A stretch of DNA of 64,000 nt from a virus (IMGVR_UViG_3300002220_000189:63206-127205); one strand, 5' to 3'; numbered from the stretch's first letter, positions 29,436 through 45,770 are shown. Translations and numbers: made by a program. Notes: a model not told the origin generated them from the sequence alone.

Positions 29436-32033
29436 TTATGCTCTAAAATCGCCGGATCTTGTCAACCAGTTCCAATCCTCAACAGTCTGTTCAATATCAG
29501 CGATTATTCCCCATACTTCATCTTCTGAGACTCCATCATTTCTATCTCGCTCTCTATCCATTACCGATTTTAATACACCAGTTTCTTCTAATACATCCAT
29601 TTCTGTAAAATATGTTGCCCAATATAATGCAGATATAACATCATCAGGTAAATTTAACCCATAAAATTTACCCTTATCTTCAATAAAAGATGATAAACAC
29701 ATAATAGTTCTTTTATCAACTATTTCTATACAATCATCTTCAATTAATTTTTTCATCAATAAAACAGCTTTCGGTTTAGTAGTTCTTGAAGCCCTTATAC
29801 CTAAATCCACAACTCTACTTCCAGTATTTACAAGACTAACATTTTCATATTCCCACCATAATCTATTTACAACCGCTGATCCTTCTGCATTATTTTCACA
29901 CATTATATGCGCATTATTATAATAGATTGATAATCTATTTATTATTTCCGAAAAAGAATATACATCAGTATAATCATCTTCAAATACAGCAACTTGTTTA
30001 TATTTGATGGGAACTAGAGAAAGTAATTTCAAAATTTGTATAGCCGAATTATTTTCACCAGTACCCTTTGCAGAATCAACACCAATAACATATACACTTC
30101 CAAGTTCTGGTTTTTCATATACAGCCAATCTATCATTCAAATCATACATTAAAGGATTTTCTGTTTTAGTATATAAAATTTCAAGTATATTGGGATCAAT
30201 AACAGTATTAGAAGAACCTAAAAATTGTACGTCATATTCTTGATTAAATCTTTGTAATCCTAAATTAGATATTTGATTTTTAGCCCATTCTTCATCCCTG
30301 CCAGGAACATCTCTCCATGTAGATTTAATAAATTTGAATTCATTTTCATTTCTTTCTGCTTGTGAATATATAGTATGAAATAAATTGTATGTACCATTTG
30401 GTGTAGATATAATAATAATTTTTGATTCCTGTGATGCTGAAATCGTAGGATAATTAGCTGACCAAAATTCTTCAGCAACTGCTTTAGGAACAAATGCAAA
30501 TTCATCCATAACCAATAAATTAAGTGTTCGTCCTCTAAAAGCATCTGCTGATGTTGCAGATACCATAATTTTTGATCCATTATCAAATGAAACAAATGTT
30601 TTTGAATATTCAACAACACCGGGTTTTAACCAAACAGGAAGTTCTTCATACATTTTTTTTATTCTTGAAAGAATGTCTATAGCAGATGTTTGTTTATTAG
30701 ATACAATACCAACTTCTTTATTAGAATTAAAAATGGCATACCATAAAGCATATACTGAAATTACTGATGTATTGTGTGTAGGAATCATTGTTTTACCACA
30801 TAAAAATAATGATTCATCATTATCAACTTTAATACATTTTACAGAAACAGAATCAATTTTTATAATATTTTTAATATAAATTCTTTTATTTTTAGGATGA
30901 TTAAGACATTTTTTTTGTCTATCTAATTTTCTTTTTAATTTAAAAACATCATATTCACATGTTGTAAAAGATAATATAAAATATTTTTCACCTTTAACTA
31001 TTTTATCTCTTTTACGAGATTTTATACCCAAACCTGATAATAGTTCTCTTACATTATCTATAAATAATTCATTTTTTTGATAAAATTCACAACTTCCTCC
31101 AATATCACAATAACCATCCGTATCCATTAATCCTCTTAATAATTCCAATCTTTGATTAATTGATGAATATAAATAATCATTTGGTATATGTTTATTATTA
31201 CAATTATTAATTTTTTTCAAATCTGTTATAAGGTTATATATTGTAAAATATCCTGTTGTTTCCCTTCTTTTATCTGGTCTATATTCAGATATATTATATT
31301 TTTCTATAATATTATCTGATATTTCATTATAATCATCTATATGTGTTGTTATTCTTCCATTTCTCTTATCACCATCACCTAACCAAACACCCAAAACATA
31401 TGGGTCAATTAATAAATTTTTTTCAGAATATTCAATAGCATTATGATAATTTATATAAAATGTTTTTGCTTTATTTTTTGAAATATCATCAACTATTTCC
31501 TTAGTTGTTAATATTTTTTCAAGATGTGTTTGTGTTTTCCCATTAATCATTTTTTTATGATATGAGGAACCAACACACCATAAATGTTCTTCATCTGCTA
31601 TAATTTTCTCACCGTTATCAAATTCAATTTCATAACAATTATGATTATTCATTATATCTGTGATAAATGTAACTTTTGTTCCTTTACCATCTCTACCAAC
31701 TAATAAATCATTAACTTTTATATCACCCATTTTTTTCCAAGTACCATCAAACATTGGTATGGGCGTATCAAGACTTAATGCTTTCCCTGACTGTCTTGAA
31801 AGTAATCCTATAATATATCTATTATTTGTAAGAAGTTCAAGAATCATATTCTGATATGAATATGGTTTAAACTCAACAATGCCCTTATCTGGATGAATTA
31901 CCTTTACATATTTTAAAAAATACCAAATATTATTAGAACAATCCATTAATTCTGAAAAATGTTCTGTAGAATATTCAAATTCTTCACGTGGTCTTTTTAC
32001 ATATTCTGAATATCTAATAGCCATAAAATTCAC
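29436..32033 (-). CDS. gp17: Terminase large subunit with intein
   Basis: SRQSGK|intein|TSV, DEFAFV, IIISTPNG, FNQEY, GVDSAKG; start may be ATG 32024. Confidence 0.95.
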   Translation of the reverse strand: MNFMAIRYSEYVKRPREEFEYSTEHFSELMDCSNNIWYFLKYVKVIHPDKGIVEFKPYSYQNMILELLTNNRYIIGLLSRQSGKALSLDTPIPMFDGTWKKMGDIKVNDLLVGRDGKGTKVTFITDIMNNHNCYEIEFDNGEKIIADEEHLWCVGSSYHKKMINGKTQTHLEKILTTKEIVDDISKNKAKTFYINYHNAIEYSEKNLLIDPYVLGVWLGDGDKRNGRITTHIDDYNEISDNIIEKYNISEYRPDKRRETTGYFTIYNLITDLKKINNCNNKHIPNDYLYSSINQRLELLRGLMDTDGYCDIGGSCEFYQKNELFIDNVRELLSGLGIKSRKRDKIVKGEKYFILSFTTCEYDVFKLKRKLDRQKKCLNHPKNKRIYIKNIIKIDSVSVKCIKVDNDESLFLCGKTMIPTHNTSVISVYALWYAIFNSNKEVGIVSNKQTSAIDILSRIKKMYEELPVWLKPGVVEYSKTFVSFDNGSKIMVSATSADAFRGRTLNLLVMDEFAFVPKAVAEEFWSANYPTISASQESKIIIISTPNGTYNLFHTIYSQAERNENEFKFIKSTWRDVPGRDEEWAKNQISNLGLQRFNQEYDVQFLGSSNTVIDPNILEILYTKTENPLMYDLNDRLAVYEKPELGSVYVIGVDSAKGTGENNSAIQILKLLSLVPIKYKQVAVFEDDYTDVYSFSEIINRLSIYYNNAHIMCENNAEGSAVVNRLWWEYENVSLVNTGSRVVDLGIRASRTTKPKAVLLMKKLIEDDCIEIVDKRTIMCLSSFIEDKGKFYGLNLPDDVISALYWATYFTEMDVLEETGVLKSVMDRERDRNDGVSEDEVWGIIADIEQTVEDWNWLTRSGDFRA
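30771..31781 (-). mobile_element. 337-aa class-3-type intein with LAGLIDADG endonuclease, in the terminase Walker A
   Basis: Starts ALSLDT; ADEEHLW; LGVWLGDG and LRGLMDTDG; VKCIKV; PTHN|T. Confidence 0.9.
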
Positions 32034-32069: not shown

Positions 32070-32077
32070 TATTTATA
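32070..32077 (-). promoter_or_regulatory. Late promoter TATAAATA for gp17
   Basis: Exact motif, intergenic. Confidence 0.65.
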
Positions 32078-32105
32078 ATTTTTATTCAAATTATATAATA
32101 AAAGC

Positions 32106-32151
32106 AAAAAAATACCCCTATCTAATGTATTTATATAGATAAGGGTATTTT
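32106..32151 (-). terminator. Intrinsic terminator after spoVR, with a TATAAATA (32128-32135) in the loop
   Basis: Arms aaaatacccctatcta/tagataagggtatttt with a T-run on the minus strand. Confidence 0.7.
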
Positions 32152-32169
32152 ACTTAAAAATAAATTATA

Positions 32170-33678
32170 TTAAAATTTTATACTATCCGGTTCTCCTATT
32201 TTAAAATCTTTATTTTTTCCAACAGCTACTAAAATTTCTTTTCCAGACTGTACTGTTTTCAAATATACAGGTTTTCCCCATAAATCTACTATATGAGATA
32301 ATGTTTTAACCATAAATACAGTTTCTAACTGTTGTCCAGAATATTTATGTTCCATAAATAGATGTCCTGAATCTCCAAAATTTCCATTAACTACTTCAAT
32401 TTTTGGAATTCCACTATGTGCAAATGATGAAATAATTATTTTTTTAATATCGTCACAACTATGATCGGTTCTTATATAATCATCATAAAAGGGAGTTTCT
32501 CTTTTTATATAAATATATAAATCTAATTTATCAATAAGATCAGTTGTTAAAAAATCTTGCATAAAAAACCAATCAGTATAAGTTTTCATTACATCCTTAA
32601 CCTTTTCCCATCCTTTCATTTCTTTTGTATCCCATTCTTCACGTTCTCTTATATTTACACATTCATCCCATTCTTTACCATATCTTCCTTTATTCCATCT
32701 ATCTTCAATATCTTCTAACATTTTAGAACCTATAAGATATGGATTCATTGTAAATTTACTATGAGCTTTTACAAGTGAATTACTATAATTAAATTGCCCA
32801 TGCTCACTTGATGTTAATAAATCTTCTTCAAATAGTTTATTACATATTTTTTGATGAATTACAGTTGCAAATCCTTCATTTAAATACTTAGTTTTAATAA
32901 TAGGCCAAAAATATTGTCCTTCAATTCTTAATATTTCAAGAATATCTTTTTGCCAATCATCTAATACTTTTGAATTATCTATTATATACCTCAATATATC
33001 TTCAACAGGTTCTATAGGAGTTTTTTCTTTAAGGCGTTGCCAATATAAATTATTAAAGGTATCAATATCAGAAGCATAATCTTTCTTATTTGAAACCAAA
33101 TCACTATAATCTGATGTATCTGGTTTAAAAATTTGTTTAGTTTGATTGAATATTCTTAATCGTCTTTCATTTTCTGTTTCTTCTTCAAGTGGATTAGAAT
33201 GAAATTGAATTGAATGACCAGCATCAATAATTTTTTCTACAGAATCAATTCCATAAATTCTTTCATATTCATTAAATCTACCATATGCTTCCGTCATTAT
33301 TGCCATTAAATCTCGTCTTGATTTTTGAAACCACTTACTTTCTGTGAACATTGCTATATGACCGTAGACATGTGCCATAACAAGAACTTGAACAGCAAAT
33401 GTATTAGAATTCATTAAATATGCTCTTGGTATATCAGCATTAATAACTACTTCATATGGTAATGAAGGATCTAAATCTTCAAAAATTGTTTTTAATTTTT
33501 CATAATCTCTACCATATTTCCATGAGCTTATATTATTAGGACTTCTATATGCAAGTATTTCTAACATTTTTTCAGGAGGAACAATATCAAATTCAACAGG
33601 TAAACATTTTAAACCCATCTCTTCAATGATTTCTTTTATTCTATCTTCAATTTTTATAAGTCTTTGTAGTTCGTTCAT
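32170..33678 (-). CDS. spoVR: SpoVR/YcgB family protein
   Basis: W.YGRDYE, YEVVIN, AYLM..N, LVMAHVYGH, YFWP..KTKYLNEGFA, NPYLIG. Confidence 0.92.
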   Translation of the reverse strand: MNELQRLIKIEDRIKEIIEEMGLKCLPVEFDIVPPEKMLEILAYRSPNNISSWKYGRDYEKLKTIFEDLDPSLPYEVVINADIPRAYLMNSNTFAVQVLVMAHVYGHIAMFTESKWFQKSRRDLMAIMTEAYGRFNEYERIYGIDSVEKIIDAGHSIQFHSNPLEEETENERRLRIFNQTKQIFKPDTSDYSDLVSNKKDYASDIDTFNNLYWQRLKEKTPIEPVEDILRYIIDNSKVLDDWQKDILEILRIEGQYFWPIIKTKYLNEGFATVIHQKICNKLFEEDLLTSSEHGQFNYSNSLVKAHSKFTMNPYLIGSKMLEDIEDRWNKGRYGKEWDECVNIREREEWDTKEMKGWEKVKDVMKTYTDWFFMQDFLTTDLIDKLDLYIYIKRETPFYDDYIRTDHSCDDIKKIIISSFAHSGIPKIEVVNGNFGDSGHLFMEHKYSGQQLETVFMVKTLSHIVDLWGKPVYLKTVQSGKEILVAVGKNKDFKIGEPDSIKF

Positions 33679-33787
33679 TTTCAGCCTTTCTTTTATTAAT
33701 TATATCATTGTTTTTTTCATTTTCAGTTGGTTCGTGTTCATATATCCAACGATAACAATCATAATATTTCCAAACATCACTCATTGA
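33647..33787 (-). CDS. Small hypothetical protein (start uncertain)
   Basis: 3' part of ORF 33647..33886 (SDVWKYYDCYRWIYEH). Confidence 0.3.
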   Translation of the reverse strand, partial: SMSDVWKYYDCYRWIYEHEPTENEKNNDIINKRKAENERTTKTYKN

Positions 33788-33803
33788 CATAACATTAGCC
33801 TTT

Positions 33804-34052
33804 CTAATCAATATCATCTGAAAATTCAACAAGTTTATTATCATCTGTAAATGAGAAAAATGCTCCTCTGTCTTCATTAGTTTCATTTACATAATAAACT
33901 TCTATTATATTATCATAATAAAAACATTGCCCGAAATACCAATCTGACATATCTTGTAATTTTTCTTCACATATTTTTGCTATAATTGGAAATCTGTTTT
34001 TATATTCTTCTTCTTCATATATTTCTTCTTCATCATATACATTTTTATTCAT
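33804..34052 (-). CDS. Acidic hypothetical protein
   Basis: ORF coupled to the yeaH stop. Confidence 0.55.
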   Translation of the reverse strand: MNKNVYDEEEIYEEEEYKNRFPIIAKICEEKLQDMSDWYFGQCFYYDNIIEVYYVNETNEDRGAFFSFTDDNKLVEFSDDID

Positions 34053-34053
34053 T

Positions 34054-35397
34054 TTATCTCTCCTTTTTGGCGAACAGCAGATGTTTAAGCATTGGATAAA
34101 TATGTGTTTTATTTTTTATTACTCCTGCTAAAAATCTTAATTCATCATTTTTATAAAAATTAATACCAGAATCTGTTGTTATTCTAAAATAAAATTCCTT
34201 TTTAATAGCATCTAATAATGAATGAAAAGATGACAAAGATGACAAAGATGCAGTAGGGGTTGGTATGTCTTCATCTGATTGCGGATTAATTTCACAATAT
34301 CCTAACATATTGATATTTCTTGTAAGCATTTCTTTTATAGATAATATAGTTTTACTTGTATCCCAATCTTCACCATCTGAAATATATATAACATAAACAT
34401 TCCATGCATTCAACGGATATTCAGTATCAATAATATAAGATGCTAAATCAAATGCTGTATAACACATTGTTCCGCCTGATTCTCCTTTACGAAAAAATGT
34501 TTCTTCATCAACAACTTTAGCATCTGTAGTATGTACAATAAATTTTATTTGAACATTATTATATGATTTTTTAAGAAACTCGGACATCCAAAATAACATT
34601 GATCTTGCCATATATTTCTTATCTGTTGTCATTGATCCAGAAGTATCCATCATAGCAATAATTGCAGCATTACTATGATATTCAACTTCAGTCTCTATTT
34701 GTTTATATCTTAAATCATCATCTTCAATAAAAAAACTTCCTAAATCAATACTTTGATCTATTTTATTTTCTTTAATAATTGTTATAGCATCGTTTAAATC
34801 ACCAAATGCTTGAATTAAAGCCTTATGAGCATCACTTTCTAAACATTTAGTTTCTTTCATTATTTCATTAACATATAAAATAGTTCTTTTAATAGTTTCT
34901 TTCAAAGTTCTTTTTTTATGAATTCTAGGAATAATACCAACTTTTGAGATACTTTCAAATTTCCATCCAACTGGAACAAGATGTTCTTTTTTAGTTTTTT
35001 CTTTAATATACGGTAATCCTAAATCCTCAAACATAATATTAATTAAATAATCAAGATCAACTTCTGTTTCCATATAATCATCACCAGGTTGATCACCAGC
35101 ACCTGTAGAATTACCATCTTTTGGTCTACGACTTATAATATCGCCAGAATTTCCTTTACCTTGTCCTATACCACCAGTAATACCATCGCCACCATGACCA
35201 TAAATAAATTTATAATCTTTTAATCCACGAACAGGTATTTTTATAGTTTTTCCATGTTTTCTGGTAATTATTGATTCTTCAGAAATTACATTACGAACAT
35301 TTTTTCTTATATGCTCATCAATTTTTTCTCTATGTCTTTGAGCATCCTTCATGCCTTTTTCAGATAAAGACCAGTCATCCCAATGTTTTATACTCAT
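34054..35397 (-). CDS. yeaH: YeaH/YhbH (DUF444) vWA-domain protein
   Basis: DAQRHREKI, GIGQGKG..GD, DLGLP, DDLRYK, AMMDTSGSM, GESGGT, SDGEDW. Confidence 0.92.
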   Translation of the reverse strand: MSIKHWDDWSLSEKGMKDAQRHREKIDEHIRKNVRNVISEESIITRKHGKTIKIPVRGLKDYKFIYGHGGDGITGGIGQGKGNSGDIISRRPKDGNSTGAGDQPGDDYMETEVDLDYLINIMFEDLGLPYIKEKTKKEHLVPVGWKFESISKVGIIPRIHKKRTLKETIKRTILYVNEIMKETKCLESDAHKALIQAFGDLNDAITIIKENKIDQSIDLGSFFIEDDDLRYKQIETEVEYHSNAAIIAMMDTSGSMTTDKKYMARSMLFWMSEFLKKSYNNVQIKFIVHTTDAKVVDEETFFRKGESGGTMCYTAFDLASYIIDTEYPLNAWNVYVIYISDGEDWDTSKTILSIKEMLTRNINMLGYCEINPQSDEDIPTPTASLSSLSSFHSLLDAIKKEFYFRITTDSGINFYKNDELRFLAGVIKNKTHIYPMLKHLLFAKKER

Positions 35398-35538
35398 ATA
35401 ATTTATTTTCCTTTGCCTGTCTTTTAGTTTTTGTTGGTGAAATATTGCGTTATTTCCTTATTTTATAAGGATTTTCAACTTTATCTCCAATTTCAAATAA
35501 GGGTAGGTTAATGTTCATGCTTTAGCTCTCCTATTGAT

Positions 35539-36189
35539 TTATAGTATATCATTATTTATCATAGATGTAAATAAATCATAATAACTTTTTTCTTTGCCTC
35601 GTATTTCCCTATGGCATTTGAGACATAATGTTATACCATTATTTACATCAAATCTTAATTTTTCATATGTTGAGAATTCTTTTATATGATGTGCTTCTAT
35701 TTTTTTACCTCTTGATTTACACAGAGCACATGTATAATCATCTCTTTCAAAAATGTATTTTCTCCAATCTTTGTATTCTGGACTATTATAAATTTTACCA
35801 TTTTTAGATGTTATACCACCTTTCCATGCAGGATTTTTATCTCCTAAAAATTTTTGTCTTCTAAATTCAGATAGTCGTTTTTGTGTTTCTGGTGGTACTT
35901 TTTTAGGTTTTCCAGTATTTGATATACTTATTTTTTTAGCGGTTTCTTTTGAAATACCATAAATTGAATTACGATATTTTGTATTACATGATAAAGAACA
36001 ACAATTGCCTTTGTTTCCACTACAATAAAAAAATTTTTCATTACATACAATACAAGGTGTTTCGCTTATCAAATAAACTGTCATTGACCAAGGATTTTTG
36101 ATTTTTGGATTATCCTTATACCATTTACCAGTTTTTTCATTGAATCTAAGACATTTTAATCCATTTTCATATTTCATAAAAATAAACAC
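35539..36189 (-). CDS. HNH homing endonuclease with NUMOD-like motifs
   Basis: NPAWKGG...WRKYIFERDDYTCALC...AHHIK...NGITLCLKCH. Confidence 0.88.
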   Translation of the reverse strand: MFIFMKYENGLKCLRFNEKTGKWYKDNPKIKNPWSMTVYLISETPCIVCNEKFFYCSGNKGNCCSLSCNTKYRNSIYGISKETAKKISISNTGKPKKVPPETQKRLSEFRRQKFLGDKNPAWKGGITSKNGKIYNSPEYKDWRKYIFERDDYTCALCKSRGKKIEAHHIKEFSTYEKLRFDVNNGITLCLKCHREIRGKEKSYYDLFTSMINNDIL

Positions 36190-36210
36190 TCCTAAAATTT
36201 CTTCTAAGAG

Positions 36211-36218
36211 TATTTATA
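36211..36218 (-). promoter_or_regulatory. Late promoter TATAAATA upstream of the HNH gene
   Basis: Exact motif, intergenic. Confidence 0.6.
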
Positions 36219-36264
36219 AAAAACTTTTGTAATTGAGATTATGTGAGTTTTTCCTGTGCCTGTT

Positions 36265-38244
36265 TCAACTTTCCTTGCGCAAGATTTCTCCGACAAATGC
36301 TAAAAGAATATTAGCACATTCTTTACAATATCCCTTATCTAGCAATCTATCTATAGCGGTTTCTCGTCTCTTTTTTGATTTATCATCAGTTGCTGACTTA
36401 TCTGCTATAGTAAGAGAAACAACATTTTTTAAATCTGACATTAATTTCTTTTCAATAGCAATTCTTAATGGATCATAATCTTTAAAAGTAAAAGGTAATC
36501 CTTTTTCTAATTGTGTAGATTTATAAACAAATATACCATTTCTAAATTCTGCTTTTGAATTTACAGGAATTCCTATATACTCTTCAATCTGTCTCATTAA
36601 CTTTTCATCAGCATTTGAATATTCACCAGTAATAGAATCAAACACTTTCTCTTTCTTACAAAATGCTGATGCATTCATTAAATAATTTTCAAATAAAGAT
36701 TGTGCTTGTTCTTCATATGCAGACAAAAAGGCCATATTTACTTCTTTTTTTGCAAGTGTTTTATATTCTGAACTCACCGATTCTTTTTCACCAATCAATA
36801 ATCCAATAAATCTTTCTTCATCTTTATCATCAATTCCAACATGATGTTCAAAATTTGTTCTTAAAGCTCTAAGAATATCAATAGGATTTATACATTTTTT
36901 ATCTTCTTTTGTACCTAAAGTAATATTTAATGCATTAATTATAAAACGTGGTGATATACCTGCCATACCTTCACCTTTTTCTCTACCTTCTTTTCTTAAC
37001 ATTTTTACATCAATTTCTTGTTTTCTCATTTCTTCTATAATATCACCATTATAAATTTTCATCTTTTCAACAAGTGAATTAATTCTTGTCGAAGGTGTAA
37101 GTCTTGATAAAACTGCAAATTCGGCAGCTATTCTTAATGTATGTGGCGCAATATGTATATTTTTAAACCCACTTTCTCTTATCATTTTTTCATATATTTT
37201 AATTTCATCTTCAACCCTTACATTCCAAGGAACAAGTATAGGATACATTCTATCTTGTAATGCTTCATTTTTTTTATCTGCTTTAAAAGAATCAAATTCG
37301 GTTTTATTAGTATGACTAATAATTAATGTATCAATATACATTTGCGGAAATCCTGGGGCCTTTATCATTTGTTCTTGTGCTGCAGTAATTAAAACATAGT
37401 GAAATTTAGTATCAGCTTTTAAGATTTCTATATATTCAATCATACCACCATTAGCAATTTGTAATTCACCATTAAACTGATATGCACGTGGATCAGTTTC
37501 TCCAAATCTTGTCATTTTACTCATATTAACACGACCAATTAATTCAGAAATATCTTGACTTTTGGCATCTGAAGGTTGAAATGTTCCAATACCAATTCTT
37601 CGTTGTTCAGAAAATCTAATTTTTTCTATCATAACATCTTCCCATCTTACTTTATGATCTTCCGATGTATATTCATTATCAATAATAAATTGACAATGTG
37701 GGCATAATTTTCCTTCAATTTTTACACCAAGTTGTTCTTCCCAATATTGTCTATCAGATTCAGGAATAAGATGTAATGGTTCTTCATGTATAGGGCAATT
37801 TTTAATTGCATACTTTGGAGTATCATCATTTTCAAGACCTTTTTTTATAAGACTTGAAATTGTACTTTTTCCAGAACTTACAGGACCTATCATAATAAGA
37901 ATTCTTTTACCTGTTTCAGTTCTTCTTGCCGATGCTTTTAAAAATTTCATAATATCATGTAATGGTTCAAGAGTTCCATAAATTTTATTATCAAAAAATT
38001 TATATTTGATAAGATCATCATATCCACTTGATTTTAAAGAAGAATCAACTTCCTCGGTACCATATTTCATTATCATATTATAAATACGACCGGGAGAAAA
38101 ATTAGCTATATCAGGATTTTCTTTTACTAAATATAGATAATCAAGACATGATCCTTCCCAATTTTTAATTCCATTTTTTTCCTTCTGTTCTAAAATTACT
38201 TGCCTGAAATCTTCCATATTTACAATATTAACATTACCCATCAT
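36265..38244 (-). CDS. prkA: PrkA/YeaG family AAA+ ATPase / serine protein kinase
   Basis: GPVSSGKST, CPIHEEPLHLIP, GIGTFQPSD.KSQDISEL.G, DPRAYQFNGEL..ANGG, GISPRF. Confidence 0.95.
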   Translation of the reverse strand: MMGNVNIVNMEDFRQVILEQKEKNGIKNWEGSCLDYLYLVKENPDIANFSPGRIYNMIMKYGTEEVDSSLKSSGYDDLIKYKFFDNKIYGTLEPLHDIMKFLKASARRTETGKRILIMIGPVSSGKSTISSLIKKGLENDDTPKYAIKNCPIHEEPLHLIPESDRQYWEEQLGVKIEGKLCPHCQFIIDNEYTSEDHKVRWEDVMIEKIRFSEQRRIGIGTFQPSDAKSQDISELIGRVNMSKMTRFGETDPRAYQFNGELQIANGGMIEYIEILKADTKFHYVLITAAQEQMIKAPGFPQMYIDTLIISHTNKTEFDSFKADKKNEALQDRMYPILVPWNVRVEDEIKIYEKMIRESGFKNIHIAPHTLRIAAEFAVLSRLTPSTRINSLVEKMKIYNGDIIEEMRKQEIDVKMLRKEGREKGEGMAGISPRFIINALNITLGTKEDKKCINPIDILRALRTNFEHHVGIDDKDEERFIGLLIGEKESVSSEYKTLAKKEVNMAFLSAYEEQAQSLFENYLMNASAFCKKEKVFDSITGEYSNADEKLMRQIEEYIGIPVNSKAEFRNGIFVYKSTQLEKGLPFTFKDYDPLRIAIEKKLMSDLKNVVSLTIADKSATDDKSKKRRETAIDRLLDKGYCKECANILLAFVGEILRKES

Positions 38245-38689
38245 AAAAATTCTCCTTATTTTCTATCATTTTTTTATCTTTTTGTTCTTTTAATAATTTT
38301 AAAAGTGTTTCTCTATCTGTTACAATAATATTTTGATTAACAGTTTTTTCACCTTTTATTCTCATTGATTTTATTTTTAATTCTAACATATCTCTCTTTA
38401 ATTGTAAATTTTCAAAATCAACTGTTTTTTTATGTATTTGTTTAGAAATATCTGAAATAATACCCATCACTTGAGATGATACTTCTACCATTCTTGGTGA
38501 AAAATTACCAGCATTCATTTCTAATATTAATCTATCTAAAAGAGCATTAGCTCTTGCAAGATTTCCTTTTAAAATTTTATCTGTATCATCAATATCAATA
38601 TTGTCAAGATTTTTTTCAATATCAATTTTAAAATCTTCTTTATCAGATTCTATATTAAATTCTTTTGCTAAATTTTCTAAATCAATCAT
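38234..38689 (-). CDS. gp16: Terminase small subunit (gp16-like)
   Basis: SPRMVEV..., TVNQNIIVTDRETLLKLL C-terminal pattern; late promoters upstream. Confidence 0.7.
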   Translation of the reverse strand: MIDLENLAKEFNIESDKEDFKIDIEKNLDNIDIDDTDKILKGNLARANALLDRLILEMNAGNFSPRMVEVSSQVMGIISDISKQIHKKTVDFENLQLKRDMLELKIKSMRIKGEKTVNQNIIVTDRETLLKLLKEQKDKKMIENKENFYDG

Positions 38690-38707: not shown

Positions 38708-38725
38708 TATTTATATTTATTTATA
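38708..38725 (-). promoter_or_regulatory. Two tandem late promoters TATAAATA (38708-38715, 38718-38725)
   Basis: Exact motifs. Confidence 0.65.
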
Positions 38726-38727
38726 AT

Positions 38728-38756
38728 AATATACCATATATTATTAATACTGTCAA
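38728..38756 (-). promoter_or_regulatory. Sigma70-type promoter (extended -10)
   Basis: TTGACA-17 nt-TATATT preceded by TG. Confidence 0.6.
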
Positions 38757-38787: not shown

Positions 38788-38819
38788 AAAAAAGTCTGGT
38801 TATTTCTAACCAGACTTTT
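38788..38819 (-). terminator. Intrinsic terminator after the major capsid gene
   Basis: aaaagtctggtta-tttc-taaccagactttt perfect hairpin with a T-run. Confidence 0.85.
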
Positions 38820-38853: not shown

Positions 38854-40050
38854 TTACGATGGTAAATTGTACACTCCAATTTTTTGGTAGTACAAATTAG
38901 AACCAAAGATGTGTTCATGTAATGCGTATCTGCTCATCAAACCAATAGTTGGATGGAATGATTGTTCAAATACTGTTTTACTTACAAGTAACTGAATATA
39001 TGGTAAATAAATAATACCAGCATCATATTCACTTGGTCCTTTATACCCTACTGTAGCATAATCAGATGCTGCAAATGTGTCTCTATATACAGAAATTCTA
39101 CCATCAAGAGAACCCATTTTTGATACTCCTGCTACAAGAACATTAGTATCATTTTCTACAGGCCATACAACAAATGATGAAAGACTTTCAAGTGCTGCAC
39201 ATACATTAGGTGAACAAACAACAAAATTGCCCGCTCCTCTTCTTGTCAATACTGCAATTCTCTGTGCTTTTCTAATAATCATATTGTATAATGTTCTGTA
39301 TTTTTCTGACTGCCATCTACCATCTGCATCTGTTGGGCTATCATAATCCCATGAACTTGATACTGCAACTGTGTTCATTTTATTTACAATCTCACGATCA
39401 ATTTCTGCCGTAATTTCATATGCTAAAATGTCCATCATTTCTTCTTCAAGATCAAGACCATGCATTGCCTTTAAATCTTGTGCTACTTCTAATGACCATC
39501 TACTTCTCAATTTTCTGGTTTTTGCTTCAACTTGTGCTTTTTCAATAGTCAAATTTACTTCACTGATAGCGGTTCCTGAACCAACACCAAGACCGATATC
39601 GCCTGTTACATTAGAACCTCTAATTTCACCAGCTGATGTTACAAGACCTACACCTGTTGTTGCTCCACCCGCATCACCTGTATACCCCTGATCTACAGTA
39701 TTATATCCAAGTTCTACATTTGAAGATGAATTATAAGTCTGACCTGCTCTAAATCTAAGAGCGAATGCCAATCCTACAGGTCCTGTCATAGGCTGAACAC
39801 CAACAATCTGATGTGCAATCAATTCAGGAAATGTTCTTCGTACCATTGGAATAGCAATCTGATGAAAATCACCCGATGTTGCATAACCCGAATTACCTCT
39901 ACCGATTTCACTGTAATTACCGGTTTCTGTTAAATATTTACTCTCATTTTCTAACATAAGAGCGGTTGATTTTTCAATCTTTTTATTAGTGATTTTCTTG
40001 CCTTCTCCAAGAATCTCACCCCATTTGTCAACCAAAGTTTTTAAATCCAT
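38854..40050 (-). CDS. gp23: Major capsid protein
   Basis: GVQPMTGPVGLAFALR, KTRKLRSRWSLEVAQDLKAMHGLD, YKGPSEYDAG. Confidence 0.97.
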   Translation of the reverse strand: MDLKTLVDKWGEILGEGKKITNKKIEKSTALMLENESKYLTETGNYSEIGRGNSGYATSGDFHQIAIPMVRRTFPELIAHQIVGVQPMTGPVGLAFALRFRAGQTYNSSSNVELGYNTVDQGYTGDAGGATTGVGLVTSAGEIRGSNVTGDIGLGVGSGTAISEVNLTIEKAQVEAKTRKLRSRWSLEVAQDLKAMHGLDLEEEMMDILAYEITAEIDREIVNKMNTVAVSSSWDYDSPTDADGRWQSEKYRTLYNMIIRKAQRIAVLTRRGAGNFVVCSPNVCAALESLSSFVVWPVENDTNVLVAGVSKMGSLDGRISVYRDTFAASDYATVGYKGPSEYDAGIIYLPYIQLLVSKTVFEQSFHPTIGLMSRYALHEHIFGSNLYYQKIGVYNLPS

Positions 40051-40080: not shown

Positions 40081-40998
40081 TTAAAATTTATTCTCTTTTA
40101 AAATCTGTTTCCAGCGTTCCATTTGTTTCTTGAAAGGATCTGTATTTTCTTCTACTTCTTCTGGTTCTTGTGCATTACCAGCAACACCTTCTGCAGCAAC
40201 TTCCATCGCACCCTCACCATCAGTTTTTGCTGGATCTACTGATGCTACAGCATCTTCCATTTTTGCACCACATTTAGGACAAACCATTGTTCCTTCTGCA
40301 CCCTGTGCTGTATATATAGCACCACATGCATCACAAATATTTACATTTGTTGCACCTTCTGCTTCTGGTTCTTCTGATCCAGGTGCTACTTCTTCTAATA
40401 CAATACCGTCAACAACATACTTAAATTTTCTATCAATTTCACCTTTATCGGTTATATCACCAAGAATATTTAAAACTTTTATTCTTTTTGATTCTGTTAA
40501 ACCATCACATTTCTTTCTAAGATAAAGATTTGCGGCAAGTTCTTTAGCATCTGATTCAAGTTCCATCTTTTTACCAGTAAGTTCATTTACTTCTTTTTTA
40601 AGATTCAAAATTTCTTCTTTTGCTTCTTTCAAAAGACTTTTTACTTCATCATCAAGTACACCCTCATCAATAGCTAAACGAACTTTAAACTGCTCAATAA
40701 GTTCATCATACAATTCTCCCTTACGAGCATATTTTAATACCTTTTCTGGAATTTCAAGTTCTTCATCAAGAACAGAATCAACAAAACTTGAAAATTTTGA
40801 TGTAATATCACCCTTATAATCTTCAAATTTCTTTTCAAAATCTGCAACAAGAAGTTCTTTTTCTTCAGCTAAAAGACTATCTGCTCTTTCTCTTGCCTTC
40901 ACATCTATTATTTCATTCAATTTTTCTTTAAGTGAAGATTGCTGTGATTCATCAAGTCTCTCAACACCTAAAAGTTTCATGATTTCATCTAATTTCAT
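40081..40998 (-). CDS. gp22: Prohead core scaffold protein with a zinc-ribbon insert
   Basis: Acidic coiled coil upstream of gp23; GLTESK; CDAC...CPKC. Confidence 0.8.
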   Translation of the reverse strand: MKLDEIMKLLGVERLDESQQSSLKEKLNEIIDVKARERADSLLAEEKELLVADFEKKFEDYKGDITSKFSSFVDSVLDEELEIPEKVLKYARKGELYDELIEQFKVRLAIDEGVLDDEVKSLLKEAKEEILNLKKEVNELTGKKMELESDAKELAANLYLRKKCDGLTESKRIKVLNILGDITDKGEIDRKFKYVVDGIVLEEVAPGSEEPEAEGATNVNICDACGAIYTAQGAEGTMVCPKCGAKMEDAVASVDPAKTDGEGAMEVAAEGVAGNAQEPEEVEENTDPFKKQMERWKQILKENKF

Positions 40999-41508: not shown

Positions 41509-41760
41509 TTAAGATTTAGAATTTTTCTTCATCATATTAATTATTTCAGTTCCGATATCATTCACTAAACCAACTAACTTCTGAATATCTTTAGCAACAT
41601 AACTCCATATCTCTGTTCCTCTTTTAGAATCATACTGTCTAGTTAATTTCCACATTCTATCAAATTGACTATCTAGTCCAGAGAAAATTTTCTCAAAATT
41701 TTCTAATTCTTTATTATCAGTTGCTTCACCAAGATATTTGTCAATCTTGTTCTCAATCAT
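41509..41760 (-). CDS. Hypothetical protein, possible internal head protein
   Basis: MIENKIDKYLGEA. Confidence 0.55.
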   Translation of the reverse strand: MIENKIDKYLGEATDNKELENFEKIFSGLDSQFDRMWKLTRQYDSKRGTEIWSYVAKDIQKLVGLVNDIGTEIINMMKKNSKS

Positions 41761-42383
41761 TATAATGACCTCTCAATATTTTCCAATACTTGCCATACAT
41801 GCTTATGGTAGATATCCTTCACTTCTTTCATATCAATTTCTGGTTCTTCAATAATTTTCTTATTTGAACCATTTTTTATTTCAAAATCTTGTCCTTCATA
41901 TATTCCTTTCACCCAACTTGGATGATTTGATGGATCTGTTACTAAATCCCAAGTAATCAAATGAAAATCCTCATTTACATAATAATCAACTTCATTTACT
42001 GTTCCTAGTCCCCTACTTGAAATACCTAAATTACCTTCTCTGATAAGAACTTTAGCATTTCTACCACTATCAGTATCTACAACCTTAGCCCTTCCTTCAA
42101 GGTTATTTTCGTCATGCCATGATAATTGTTCAATAAGAATAGCAATTTTATCTGGATTCACTTCAGGTGTAGGCGGATGGCCAAGTTCACCCCAAAGACA
42201 TTTATTTTTAACTTTTTCCATAATTTTATTAACTTCTCTATTTAAGATATTTTTTTTATATCTTCTACCATTATTATTCATAATTTCGGCAGAACTAAAA
42301 ATACCATCTATATAAAGATTGCCAGATTCGCTTTCTTTAACCTGAACATTATGTGATAACTCCGTAATAAGCTTTAATCTCAT
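41760..42383 (-). CDS. gp21: Prohead core protease
   Basis: GIF...NNNGRRY, GELGHP, LGISSRGLG, DLVTDPS. Confidence 0.95.
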   Translation of the reverse strand: MRLKLITELSHNVQVKESESGNLYIDGIFSSAEIMNNNGRRYKKNILNREVNKIMEKVKNKCLWGELGHPPTPEVNPDKIAILIEQLSWHDENNLEGRAKVVDTDSGRNAKVLIREGNLGISSRGLGTVNEVDYYVNEDFHLITWDLVTDPSNHPSWVKGIYEGQDFEIKNGSNKKIIEEPEIDMKEVKDIYHKHVWQVLENIERSL

Positions 42384-43025: not shown

Positions 43026-45770
43026 TTATTGAACCATATTCATTAAATCTTCTTCTGTCATTTCAGATTCTCCATTTTCACTACCAGCACCTATATTTCC
43101 ACTATTAGCTTCTGCGAATTCATCATTAGTAGTCAATAAATATTGTTTATCTTTCTTAAATCCTGCTTTATTATCCTTTAAATCCAAATCAGTCCATTTT
43201 AAATATCGTTTTATTAAATAATATTTAGAAAACTCTGCATTATTAGATAATGCATTATAATTATTAAATGATTGTTCTAAAAATGCCTGTTCCATAGATT
43301 GTCTATAGTGGGAAGGTGGGGTCATTTTTAATTCAAAACTTCCTTTATTTAATTTATACTGTTTTTTTAAACCTTTAAATTCCAAATGTAATAAAAATAA
43401 ATCTTCAAATTCTCTACAGAATATGTTTTGTTGTCTTTCAAGAAATTTAGCCCATTTTATTTCATCTCTTGTTATTTGACCAGCATTAGATCCACCAAAA
43501 ACTATATTAGCAGATTGCCCTTCACTTTGTTGTTCTACTCTTGACATAGGATATTTTAATGCTCTATAAAGTTTTTTAGCGAAATAATATACATCATCAA
43601 GTTCAGTAAACCCTTTTACATTACCACCAACAGCCTCAATACTTGAACCTCTACCATCACTTGATGTTGGCAAAAAGAAATTTTCCAAAATACTATTACT
43701 GGCAAAGGATAATTTTGCGCCTTTAAAAGATATTGCGAAATTATGATTTCCCTCTACTTCAATACAACCACAGTCATCTCTTTCATCCAAATATTCAATT
43801 CTTACTACTCTATGATTCATATATCCTGCAAAATTCATTCTGAAATCAACATAATCATCAAACCCCATTTCATCAACCATTCGTAACAATATTCCTTTGT
43901 TTAAATGATCAAATTGTTTATTATTAATACATTGATCTTTATTCAATTCTTCCAAATAACCCATAAATTGTTCATTATTACTCAATACTTTCAATAATTT
44001 ATCTCTTGAACATGAACCAGATTCAATAAAAATATCACACATCATTTTAATAGCTGTTTCATCAATCAAAAATGATTTCTTTTTGCTAAAATTAGTTCTA
44101 TTCTCTTCATTTGAAAACCATTCAGTCTTATGTTTTCTAGCAGCCTCTTTTTGTCTTTCTCTTACTTCTGGTATATTGAGAACTTCCAGCATTTTTGCTG
44201 CTTTGTTTTGTATAATATTGGTTTTTGTAACCCATTCGGAATGTTTTTTTCTATATTCAGGATCTTTAAACATCTTTTTAACATTTTCACCATGCATGTG
44301 ATGGTGTTCTTCGTTTGTCATAATTTGTAAATTATCCGGTGAATTATTAAATCTATCAAAATTTTTGTGATGAACTATACCACTATATTTACCATAAATA
44401 TTATTTGCAACAACTCTATGTGTAAATCTCCATTTATCATCTGATGGTGTATATACTTGCTCATACTCAACTTTCTTAGTACCCATAAAACCCATTCTAG
44501 TATATAATGGCATCAATGCAGTACCCTCCTGTAACATATCAGCTCTACATTCACTACCATCTCTAAGAATAAATTTATGATCTGGTGTAGTATCAATAAA
44601 TGCACCATTATCATAATGAACCCTAACCATTTGTTCATTAGGACGCGTTATCATTGCTCTCTTTATTTTACCCGGTTCAATGTTATGTGTTTCTTTATTT
44701 ACGGTATATACCCAATGTTCCTTTCCTTCATTATGTTCCTTAATAATTTCATCTAATGTAAGAAATCTACCATCTAATAAAGGAATTTCTGTATCATGTC
44801 TAATACAAAGAACTTCTGGTTCTTGTGTAAGATTACCAGTTGTAGGATCATATGATTGCTTTTTAATAAATTTTGTTTTGATTTTCTCAACAAATTTCAT
44901 GGCCTTATCACGTGGCATGTTACCAGTATCAATCTTGAAAACTAATCTTTCTGGTGAACGAACAATTCTGTAAATAATTACAGATGTTTCTAATAATTTT
45001 AATTGATTATATGGAACTTTAGCCTTTTCAAGAAATCCAAGTACATCATATCTTGTAACACCATATAAACCATAATTAATATATCCTATTTGTGCTGGTT
45101 CAAATATAATTATTTTTCCTTTATTTTGCTCAGCCTCTGCTCTGCTACTAGGTTTTTTAGAACTTTGTGTCAAATATTGATAAAATGTTGTAATCTTACC
45201 TGTTTTTGGATCATATTCTATATCCATAGTTTCTGAAGGTAATTTTTTAATATTTGCAATTCCATCTCTATTATTTATACTTAATATTCTTTCATAATAT
45301 AATCTACCATCTACTAAAAATGTTCTGAACAAATCCCAAATTTTATTATCTATATCAAGTCTATTATAAAAAAGTTCATTAAATTCACTATGTAAAATAT
45401 TAGTAATATTCTCATTTCTACTAAGTGTTTCGTCCCTAATATCAAGAATAAATGTACCATCGTCTGTACTATCTATTTGTGTAGCTTCATTACATGCATC
45501 TTCAATAATATCGGCTATTTCTGGAGCATCGGCCATACTTCTGTACGTCATAATTTTATTAACTTCATTTTGATGCATTTTATTAATGTAGCGATTATAA
45601 AATTTATTAAGTGTAAGTGTACCTACTTGGCCATATCCTTCAAGAAAGGCCAGATCGTCAATACCTTCACCACCTGGATCTCCTTTGGTAAGTTTACTAC
45701 CAGCTTTATTCTCAAAAGCTTTTATCGCTTCATCAATTCTTTTATTGAAATACTTATCAAACCACGCCAT
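43026..45770 (-). CDS. gp20: Portal protein with intein
   Basis: YRSMA..PEI, VDGRLYY, NQLKLLE.SVIIYRIVRSPERLVFKIDTGNMP, LYRALKYP.SR, ITRDEIKW. Confidence 0.95.
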   Translation of the reverse strand: MAWFDKYFNKRIDEAIKAFENKAGSKLTKGDPGGEGIDDLAFLEGYGQVGTLTLNKFYNRYINKMHQNEVNKIMTYRSMADAPEIADIIEDACNEATQIDSTDDGTFILDIRDETLSRNENITNILHSEFNELFYNRLDIDNKIWDLFRTFLVDGRLYYERILSINNRDGIANIKKLPSETMDIEYDPKTGKITTFYQYLTQSSKKPSSRAEAEQNKGKIIIFEPAQIGYINYGLYGVTRYDVLGFLEKAKVPYNQLKLLETSVIIYRIVRSPERLVFKIDTGNMPRDKAMKFVEKIKTKFIKKQSYDPTTGNLTQEPEVLCIRHDTEIPLLDGRFLTLDEIIKEHNEGKEHWVYTVNKETHNIEPGKIKRAMITRPNEQMVRVHYDNGAFIDTTPDHKFILRDGSECRADMLQEGTALMPLYTRMGFMGTKKVEYEQVYTPSDDKWRFTHRVVANNIYGKYSGIVHHKNFDRFNNSPDNLQIMTNEEHHHMHGENVKKMFKDPEYRKKHSEWVTKTNIIQNKAAKMLEVLNIPEVRERQKEAARKHKTEWFSNEENRTNFSKKKSFLIDETAIKMMCDIFIESGSCSRDKLLKVLSNNEQFMGYLEELNKDQCINNKQFDHLNKGILLRMVDEMGFDDYVDFRMNFAGYMNHRVVRIEYLDERDDCGCIEVEGNHNFAISFKGAKLSFASNSILENFFLPTSSDGRGSSIEAVGGNVKGFTELDDVYYFAKKLYRALKYPMSRVEQQSEGQSANIVFGGSNAGQITRDEIKWAKFLERQQNIFCREFEDLFLLHLEFKGLKKQYKLNKGSFELKMTPPSHYRQSMEQAFLEQSFNNYNALSNNAEFSKYYLIKRYLKWTDLDLKDNKAGFKKDKQYLLTTNDEFAEANSGNIGAGSENGESEMTEEDLMNMVQ
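43695..44807 (-). mobile_element. 371-aa intein with HNH endonuclease in the portal
   Basis: EVL|CIRHDTEIPLLDG; TTPDHKF; VHHKNFDRFNNSPDNL; GCIEVEGNHNF...FASN|SILENFFLP. Confidence 0.9.

Follow-up and report, generated by a model that had tools for sequence, protein, structure and literature searches.

This work examines a 64,000-nucleotide stretch of viral DNA (IMGVR_UViG_3300002220_000189:63206-127205, referred to here as the window), which forms the 3' half of a linear, 127,205-bp IMG/VR virus record rated 60% complete. Between the small and large terminase genes of this T4-like phage, on the minus strand at positions 32170 to 38244, lie three genes of cellular type: prkA (yeaG), yeaH, and spoVR. 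The sequence shows that this trio is the cellular prkA-yeaH-spoVR module in a true phage-borne form, with all three genes intact. As to its function, we consider the chances about even that the trio, made late in infection, drives a starvation-type turnover of host proteins that serves phage synthesis.

The prkA-yeaH-spoVR module is among the most widespread bacterial gene sets of unsolved mechanism, and it was tied to ATP-dependent proteolysis and to the bulk degradation of protein in starved Escherichia coli only in 2022-2026. Phage-borne copies have been annotated in cultured phages, and the finding is not new in kind. What the present clade adds is a set of natural relatives without the trio, inteins in all three genes, an apparent late operon with the small terminase gene (terS), and a structural prediction for SpoVR. 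The phage copies also represent compact, host-independent versions of the module for complementation, reconstitution, and structural work, while related phages that differ in whether they carry it offer a clean natural comparison.

Identity, spread, and conservation of the trio

The three proteins belong to the same full-length Pfam families as the module found in E. coli, Bacillus subtilis, and many other bacteria and archaea. PrkA matches AAA_PrkA (PF08298; E value of 1.2e-108, profile positions 2-356 of 358) and the PrkA C-terminal domain (PF06798; 1.4e-67, positions 1-255 of 255), as well as the "serine protein kinase" of PDB entry 9xip (1.3e-124, query residues 26-655). Its Walker A motif (G120-P-V-S-S-G-K126-S127) is intact and conserved in alignments. 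YeaH is a DUF444 protein (PF04285; 3.3e-90) with a complete metal ion-dependent adhesion site (MIDAS; D251-x-S253-G-S255, T310, and D341) that is invariant in 39 sequences. SpoVR matches both SpoVR (PF04293; 1.3e-86) and SpoVR_C (PF24755; 4.4e-08), and its residues H103, H107, E148, E268, H275, D369, and H444 are invariant in the family. The gene order, prkA-yeaH-spoVR, is that of Bacillota operons. These results bear out the initial annotation, which had described three full-length genes with intact motifs in cellular order.

The features of the region, where the minus strand carries every gene around the trio, are listed below in the direction of transcription, with the basis of each assignment in parentheses.

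43026-45770, minus strand: portal gene, T4-type, with an HNH intein (Pfam)
41760-42383, minus strand: prohead protease gene, gp21-type (Pfam)
40081-40998, minus strand: scaffold protein gene, T4-type (Pfam)
38854-40050, minus strand: gp23 major capsid protein gene (Pfam)
38790-38819, minus strand: terminator-like hairpin and U-run just 3' of gp23, the apparent upstream end of the unit (terminator scan, RNA fold)
38708-38756, minus strand: promoter region 5' of terS (sigma70-like site and two TATAAATA motifs)
38234-38689, minus strand: gp16-like small terminase gene (terS), 151 amino acids (aa), the apparent first gene of the unit (phrog_445)
36265-38244, minus strand: prkA/yeaG-type AAA+ ATPase gene, 659 aa, without an intein (Pfam)
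35539-36189, minus strand: free-standing HNH homing-endonuclease gene, 216 aa, between prkA and yeaH (Pfam HNH, 1.4e-06; PHROGs HNH families)
34054-35397, minus strand: yeaH/yhbH (DUF444) gene, 447 aa, vWA-type (Pfam DUF444)
33804-34052, minus strand: acidic open reading frame (ORF), 82 aa, between yeaH and spoVR (ORF list)
32170-33678, minus strand: spoVR/ycgB gene, 502 aa (Pfam SpoVR and SpoVR_C)
32102-32155, minus strand: terminator-like hairpin and U-run 3' of spoVR, the apparent downstream end of the unit (RNA fold)
32070-32077, minus strand: late-promoter-like TATAAATA motif ahead of terL (motif scan)
29436-32033, minus strand: large terminase gene (terL), 865 aa, with a Hint and LAGLIDADG intein, the downstream flank (Pfam)

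The start of prkA (38244) lies within the end of the gp16-like ORF (38234), giving an 11-nucleotide (nt) overlap (ATGATGGGTAA) that agrees with the overlap first reported, and an AAGGAG ribosome-binding site precedes the prkA start. The trio itself stands as originally described, although its genes are not contiguous: the HNH gene and the 82-aa ORF, both previously missed, interrupt it, a departure from the cellular module.

Scanning of IMG/VR retrieved 93 contigs that encode relatives of PrkA. The arrangement scaffold-gp23-terS-prkA-(HNH)-yeaH-spoVR-terL-gp13-like-gp14-like is found on approximately 55 independent contigs, so that the survey of related phages proposed with the initial annotation returned the same position between terS and terL. 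Beyond these, more than 120 metagenomic protein clusters (at 90% identity) contain a PrkA that is 66-80% identical to that of the window, on contigs of up to 270 kb. The closest relative is a 219-kb contig (L150) with the same layout, whose PrkA and gp23 are 79% and 90% identical, respectively; in it, four genes including one for adenylosuccinate synthase are inserted between yeaH and spoVR (L150:14226-16178). The trio interval is a hot spot for added genes. Cultured phages are distant (best capsid-protein identity of ∼37-38%), and the 6-kb block had no nucleotide-level match among 50,697 phage records.

That the block might be misassembled bacterial DNA, or a recent, nonfunctional, and neutral passenger, would suit genes of cellular type on a metagenomic contig rated 60% complete, but the prospect is negligible in view of the arrangement shared by the ∼55 contigs, the more than 120 protein clusters, a GC content equal to that of the phage (∼27% across the whole window and a uniform 0.26-0.28 over the trio block), the monophyly of the clade on a long stem, and ratios of nonsynonymous to synonymous substitution (dN/dS) of 0.02-0.12. 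The chimeric assembly that the initial annotation had named as a possible refutation is excluded because the independent contigs share the arrangement and GC is uniform.

Selection on the three genes was gauged by the Nei-Gojobori method on closely related pairs. The resulting dN/dS values were 0.02-0.08 for PrkA, 0.02-0.12 for YeaH, and 0.05-0.11 for SpoVR, compared to 0.055-0.12 for gp23; across the clade, PrkA is 61-75% identical and gp23 56-78%. Purifying selection on the trio is thus on a par with that acting on the major capsid protein. To assess individual positions, conserved columns were defined as those at least 93% conserved among 69-77 homologues outside the window's clade. The window keeps 110 of 130 such columns in PrkA, 51 of 66 in YeaH, and 47 of 66 in SpoVR; the 19 near-invariant SpoVR columns that are altered are mostly changed clade-wide. 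Thus, most invariant residues of the cellular module are retained, together with its Walker A and MIDAS motifs, whereas several near-invariant positions carry changes fixed in the clade (H51P, D523M, and R610S in PrkA; H52S, D109A, and H300N in SpoVR). These substitutions point to some divergence of function or partners.

Further evidence of constraint comes from inteins. In relatives of the window, all three trio genes contain in-frame LAGLIDADG inteins, with up to three in PrkA, up to two in SpoVR, and one in YeaH; both maxima occur on a single contig, where the three PrkA inteins extend the frame to 1,882 aa. Intein-bearing frames were observed at L055:6752-12397, L055:14623-18537, L029:12456-15065, L018:5506-8061, and L052:7736-11149. 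The insertion sites fall in the most conserved motifs of the three genes: after K126 (within Walker A, GK|S), K228, K276, and H311 of PrkA; after E306 of YeaH, adjoining the MIDAS threonine; and after I79 and at ∼273/274 of SpoVR, the latter adjoining H275. Since homing inteins persist where only precise loss is tolerated, their presence is a sign that the phage needs active trio proteins. We know of no reports of inteins in the PrkA, YeaH, or SpoVR families.

Finally, PADLOC defense models returned nothing meaningful for the three proteins, and an anti-defense reading was dropped for want of support from that search.

Relatives without the trio, origin, and other phage-borne copies

Relatives without the trio were found by a gp23-based scan. 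In L157 and L166, whose gp23 proteins are 76% and 72% identical to that of the window, terL directly follows terS. The trio is also missing near the head genes of an entire subclade with gp23 57-60% identical, and no PrkA domain was found anywhere in five contigs of this subclade, including one of 235,765 bp rated 98% complete. Trio-less loci related to the window, in which terS adjoins terL, comprise L157:3889-9474, L166, L185-L190, and L201. On the gp23 tree, the presence and absence of the trio require at least three changes. TerL of the trio-less phages is 40-47% identical to that of the window, versus 55-63% for carriers; the nested trio-less cases could therefore stem from lineages having recombined their packaging regions, and not from simple loss. 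Because the same gp23/terS/terL/gp13 module functions in phages that have no trio, the trio is an accessory cassette behind terS and not a part of the packaging machinery. The gp23-terL interval also takes unrelated inserts, namely, the HNH gene and, in L150, the adenylosuccinate synthase gene, which makes it less likely that the trio serves in structure or packaging.

The nearest cellular PrkA proteins, from Limnochordales-like Bacillota metagenome-assembled genomes (MAGs), are only 42-44% identical to that of this lytic-type phage, and their operons have the same order, prkA-yeaH-spoVR. In FastTree phylogenies of PrkA, YeaH, and SpoVR, the window's clade was monophyletic with 100% support, with L086 basal in each. 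An IQ-TREE mixture-model analysis of 38 PrkA sequences likewise gave 100% support for monophyly and for a grouping with the Limnochordales-like Bacillota, which Thermus phage and Dehalococcoidia PrkA sequences joined as long, unreliable branches. Since the clade is monophyletic in all three trees, the simplest account would be one old capture of the whole operon followed by vertical inheritance. The phylogenies proposed earlier as a check therefore place the clade and its nearest cellular relatives; they are uninformative on the host and do not identify the donor. Assigning a host from the nearest cellular PrkA was rejected, as 42-44% identity is too distant. Several clade contigs (L084, L085, and L086; proteins P0096 and P0102) occur in public MAGs labeled Pirellulales, Shapirobacteria, and Hodarchaeales; these inconsistent labels probably reflect binning error and are not evidence of the host. 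No tRNA genes were found in the window.

PrkA is present in 17 phage records, among them those of Thermus phages (phiYS40, TMA, MN1, Lalka, and phiLo), Enterobacter phage LAU1, and Ralstonia jumbo phage RsoM2USA, along with four from uncultured phages ∼600 kb in size. Thermus phages phiYS40, TMA, and YS40_Isch and phage RsoM2USA are, like the source of the window, large lytic myoviruses with the three genes close together. In YS40_Isch, the yeaH-like, SpoVR, and "serine kinase" genes lie together within ∼4 kb of terL; in RsoM2USA, prkA, an unnamed gene that matches YeaH, and spoVR correspond to ORF30, ORF29, and ORF28. The Thermus phage annotations read "serine kinase," "SpoVR," and "conserved bacterial protein," the RsoM2USA paper lists the genes under signaling and replication without discussion, and PHROGs holds one family per trio protein, all labeled "unknown function." In oxygen-minimum-zone viromes, viral spoVR is the most abundant "sporulation" gene (PMC8940887). 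As to whether the trio was already widely documented in this phage clade, which the initial annotation had raised against its own novelty, the trio is thus annotated in phiYS40-type phages and RsoM2USA and spoVR in viromes, but our literature search retrieved no paper on this uncultured clade.

The cultured-phage trios differ from that of the window. The PrkA proteins of the phiYS40-type phages and RsoM2USA are only 27-35% identical to the window's and occur in other genomic contexts; the order in phiYS40 is yeaH-spoVR-x-prkA, and RsoM2USA PrkA groups with E. coli YeaG, such that PrkA subtypes different from the window's are involved. These trios look like independent captures outside the window's lineage. 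A second IMG/VR group (L058-L082) has all three genes intact, as in the window, yet in the order yeaH-spoVR-prkA and with PrkA 36-38% identical. A gene for a Gp23-family capsid protein lies far from the trio on at least two of its contigs, of 172 kb and 123 kb; unlike the window's trio, that of this group does not adjoin capsid or terminase genes. One 361-kb record of this group is flagged as a provirus, and not every member is certainly viral; taken as a whole, the group (L058-L082, L110, L122, L124, L127, and L128) mixes IMG/VR contigs with contigs binned as Bdellovibrionota, Legionellales, Methylococcaceae, and Luteolibacter, and its sequences interleave with those of the first three bins. 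Because the phage versions fall in different parts of the PrkA tree, the trio appears to have been captured several times by large phages, from different PrkA subtypes.

Probable late transcription, predicted SpoVR fold, and candidate roles

Hairpins followed by U-runs bracket terS and the trio. The hairpin 3' of gp23 has a folding energy of -18.1 kcal/mol (z = -6.7) and that 3' of spoVR one of -20.8 kcal/mol (z = -4.7), with 0 of 200 shuffles as good in either case. Among relatives, a hairpin with a T-tail follows gp23 in 19 of 30 and spoVR in 20 of 37, compared to 0 of 22 after terS and 0 of 40 after yeaH. A terminator-like hairpin is found directly after prkA in 12 of 38 relatives, where it might reduce the output of yeaH and spoVR below that of prkA. 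Upstream of terS are two T4-late-type TATAAATA motifs (38708-38715 and 38718-38725). This motif occurs 46 times in the window versus 31.8 expected; it is present 5' of the terS orthologue in 12 of 21 relatives, versus 3.6% of background 150-nt windows, and almost never directly 5' of prkA, yeaH, or spoVR. As in a cellular operon, the trio genes lie on a single strand in the cellular order, and a hairpin follows spoVR but not yeaH; the interrupting HNH gene and 82-aa ORF, and the post-prkA hairpin in the 12 relatives, qualify this likeness. Taken together, terS-prkA-yeaH-spoVR most likely form one late operon, separate from terL. T4-type late promoters would account for most of its transcription, and translation of prkA would be coupled to that of terS. 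Whereas cellular modules are under RpoS, NtrC/sigma54, or sporulation sigma factors such as sigmaE, the conserved signal here is the T4-type late motif, and control of those kinds was not found. A near-consensus sigma70-like site (TTGACA-17-TATATT with a TG; 38728-38756) also lies 5' of terS. It is conserved in 0 of 21 relatives, and promoter-like sites in the region show no enrichment (96 versus 88.7 in shuffled sequence); early expression from this site was dropped for these reasons.

In the favored reading, the three proteins would work together as an ATP-driven protein-turnover machine, with parts assigned from their cellular families: PrkA as a Lon-related AAA+ motor, YeaH as a vWA/MIDAS adaptor, and SpoVR as a zincin-fold component that could be either a peptidase or a peptidase-like regulator. 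Made late, this machine would switch on or itself perform the bulk breakdown of host cytoplasmic proteins, and the turnover would yield the amino acids and energy needed to build large virions in hosts that are nutrient-poor and grow slowly—a protein-level counterpart of the degradation of host DNA by phages for nucleotides. Capsid-level selection, sister phages without the trio, and captures by other phages together suggest that a virus assembling large particles by the hundred gains some direct benefit from the module.

This reading draws on recent studies of the cellular module. The yeaG, yeaH, and ycgB genes are cofit (r > 0.7) in six bacteria (bioRxiv 10.1101/072470). PrkA of B. subtilis is an ATPase that degrades casein in an ATP-dependent manner and has no kinase activity, and mutation of its Walker A motif abolishes its function in sporulation (PMC9512850). 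In E. coli, the largely nonspecific degradation of cytoplasmic proteins induced by starvation depends on YeaG, renamed SpdA; this degradation supplies amino acids and ATP and feeds stress-protein synthesis and survival in carbon starvation (PMC13684143). Zhang et al. relate the AAA+ domain of PrkA to Lon (PMC9512850); in contrast to Lon-type AAA+ proteases, the trio has its ATPase and its putative peptidase-like part on separate proteins.

The candidate peptidase-like part emerged from structure prediction. AlphaFold2 modeled SpoVR with a mean predicted local distance difference test score (pLDDT) of 89.4 at full length and 88.6 for the N-domain (residues 1-388) alone. When the 1-388 model was compared to known structures with VIA-align, 50 of the 50 best matches had a zincin fold (Z of 6.3-12.1, with ∼165-200 residues aligned at a root mean square deviation [rmsd] of 3.4-5 Å). 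The best match was the DUF885 structure 3o0y (Z of 12.1, rmsd of 3.4 Å over 185 residues), and others included M1 aminopeptidases (Z of ∼10), lugdulysin (9.4), and thermolysin (8.0); the predicted N-domain thus resembles the catalytic domains of gluzincin metallopeptidases. In the model, three strands lead to a helix with H103-x3-H107 and then to a later helix with the invariant E148. The motif itself reads H103-V-Y-G-H107 (family consensus AHVxGH), in which a valine replaces the catalytic glutamate of HExxH. There is moderate support, then, for a zincin-like fold with a gluzincin layout that is not a canonical zincin, and SpoVR may be a noncanonical peptidase or a peptidase-like regulator. 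The prediction applies to the entire SpoVR/YcgB family and not to the phage copy alone, and it provides a specific mutational test (H103, H107, and E148). Profile searching of PDB sequences yielded nothing for SpoVR, and neither did a protein atlas or permissive Pfam scans covering 39 members.

Several points weigh against the turnover reading. For PrkA of Bacillus anthracis, both protease and kinase activities were negligible in vitro (PMC13001217); that PrkA is itself a protease is disputed, and the E. coli data show dependence on YeaG only. Given the negligible protease activity of the B. anthracis protein, the protease may be a partner protein. Expression that is only late would leave little time for recycling, and the placement behind terS with translational coupling is compatible with a role in virion production. 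The clade-fixed changes mean that the activity of the phage trio may differ from that of the cellular one. With respect to SpoVR, the HExxH motif lacks its catalytic glutamate, a Foldseek search of the model against the PDB gave no significant match, the Z values obtained (8-12) count as middling for a helical model, and the equivalence of H103, H107, and E148 to the zincin metal site is putative.

A bolder form of the turnover reading holds that several large-phage lineages captured a full proteolytic machine, with PrkA as the motor, YeaH as the adaptor, and SpoVR as a noncanonical zincin peptidase, which converts the host proteome into amino acids and energy for virion production. We advance this form tentatively, as possible rather than probable. 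If true, it would add a new class to the ways in which phages take over host metabolism, and their genomes would open an independent route to the mechanism by which the cellular YeaG/SpdA pathway works.

Alternatively, the trio could act in host-state signaling: a kinase-like or signaling module would reset the stress, stationary-phase, or dormancy program of the host without bulk proteolysis, for instance by keeping a starving cell metabolically competent or by blocking its entry into dormancy. PrkA/YeaG has long been called a serine kinase and the cofitness study proposed a signaling pathway (bioRxiv 10.1101/072470), but kinase activity was not reproduced for PrkA of B. subtilis or B. anthracis (PMC9512850, PMC13001217). 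Mutant phenotypes vary between species, as they would for a regulator, and viral spoVR has been read in this way in oxygen-minimum-zone viromes (PMC8940887); against this, the PrkA family is widespread in nonsporulating bacteria. A host-state switch would be expected early, and the near-consensus sigma70-like promoter 5' of the window's terS could give such expression, yet none of 21 relatives has that site, and it is the late motif that is conserved. On balance, we regard signaling as unlikely. Of the host-directed role first proposed for the trio, manipulation of host dormancy or stress state, what we retain is the direction toward the host, as protein turnover; control of dormancy or sporulation is disfavored by the late promoter and by a family that is not specific to sporulation.

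The other role proposed at the outset, a MoxR/vWA-like chaperone for head assembly or packaging, belongs to a wider reading in which the AAA+/vWA/SpoVR set acts late on the phage's own proteins, in quality control, the disassembly of scaffolds or aberrant proheads, or the loading or recycling of terminase. AAA+/vWA pairs such as MoxR systems are maturation chaperones, and the trio indeed has a vWA partner, a likeness of general architecture only: at an E value of ≤0.01, Pfam places the ATPase in the two PrkA families and in no MoxR family, which speaks against the proposed repurposing. The terS/terL position is fixed in the ∼55 contigs, prkA overlaps terS by 11 nt and is probably cotranscribed with it from late promoters, and the YS40_Isch trio is also within ∼4 kb of terL. 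Nevertheless, terS adjoins terL in trio-less relatives whose head and packaging genes are the same, no PrkA domain occurs on the contig rated 98% complete, the trio of RsoM2USA and that of the second IMG/VR group lie far from packaging or capsid genes, and the gp23-terL interval accepts unrelated inserts. Moreover, the N termini of PrkA, YeaH, and SpoVR do not resemble capsid-targeting leaders of the MRxNxYLxE type; the idea that the three are capsid-targeted internal proteins was rejected on this basis. We hold a virion-production role to be quite improbable. There is, lastly, a small chance that the true explanation is one that we have not considered.

Flanking genes

The position of the trio between small and large terminase genes, as claimed in the initial annotation, stands on the phrog_445 matches of terS orthologues and on a Terminase_6N match in terL. 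For the 151-aa gene upstream of prkA, a Pfam scan gave no match, and its own match to phrog_445 (small terminase) is weak (1.5e-4), though it is the sole such match in the 127-kb record. Among 25 orthologues, 17 match phrog_445 (best E value of 5e-8), and in trio-less relatives the orthologues directly adjoin terL on its 5' side; by family and by position before terL, the gene is TerS-like.

Of the two frames that interrupt the trio, the HNH gene has an orthologue at the same site between prkA and yeaH in approximately nine relatives (35-60% identity), with the rest lacking it. The 82-aa ORF is highly acidic and begins one base past the yeaH stop codon. It had no Pfam or PHROG match and no tblastn match in any related locus; because no relatives were found, its status as a gene is uncertain.

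Downstream, terL matches Terminase_6N (8.4e-14), LAGLIDADG_3 (8.8e-08), and Hom_end_hint, and TerL residues ∼89-409 are missing from most relatives. Neck, gp15, sheath, and tube genes (identified with Pfam) lie beyond it. Inteins were observed in two genes of the window itself, those for the large terminase (Hint and LAGLIDADG) and the portal (an intein splicing domain and HNH).

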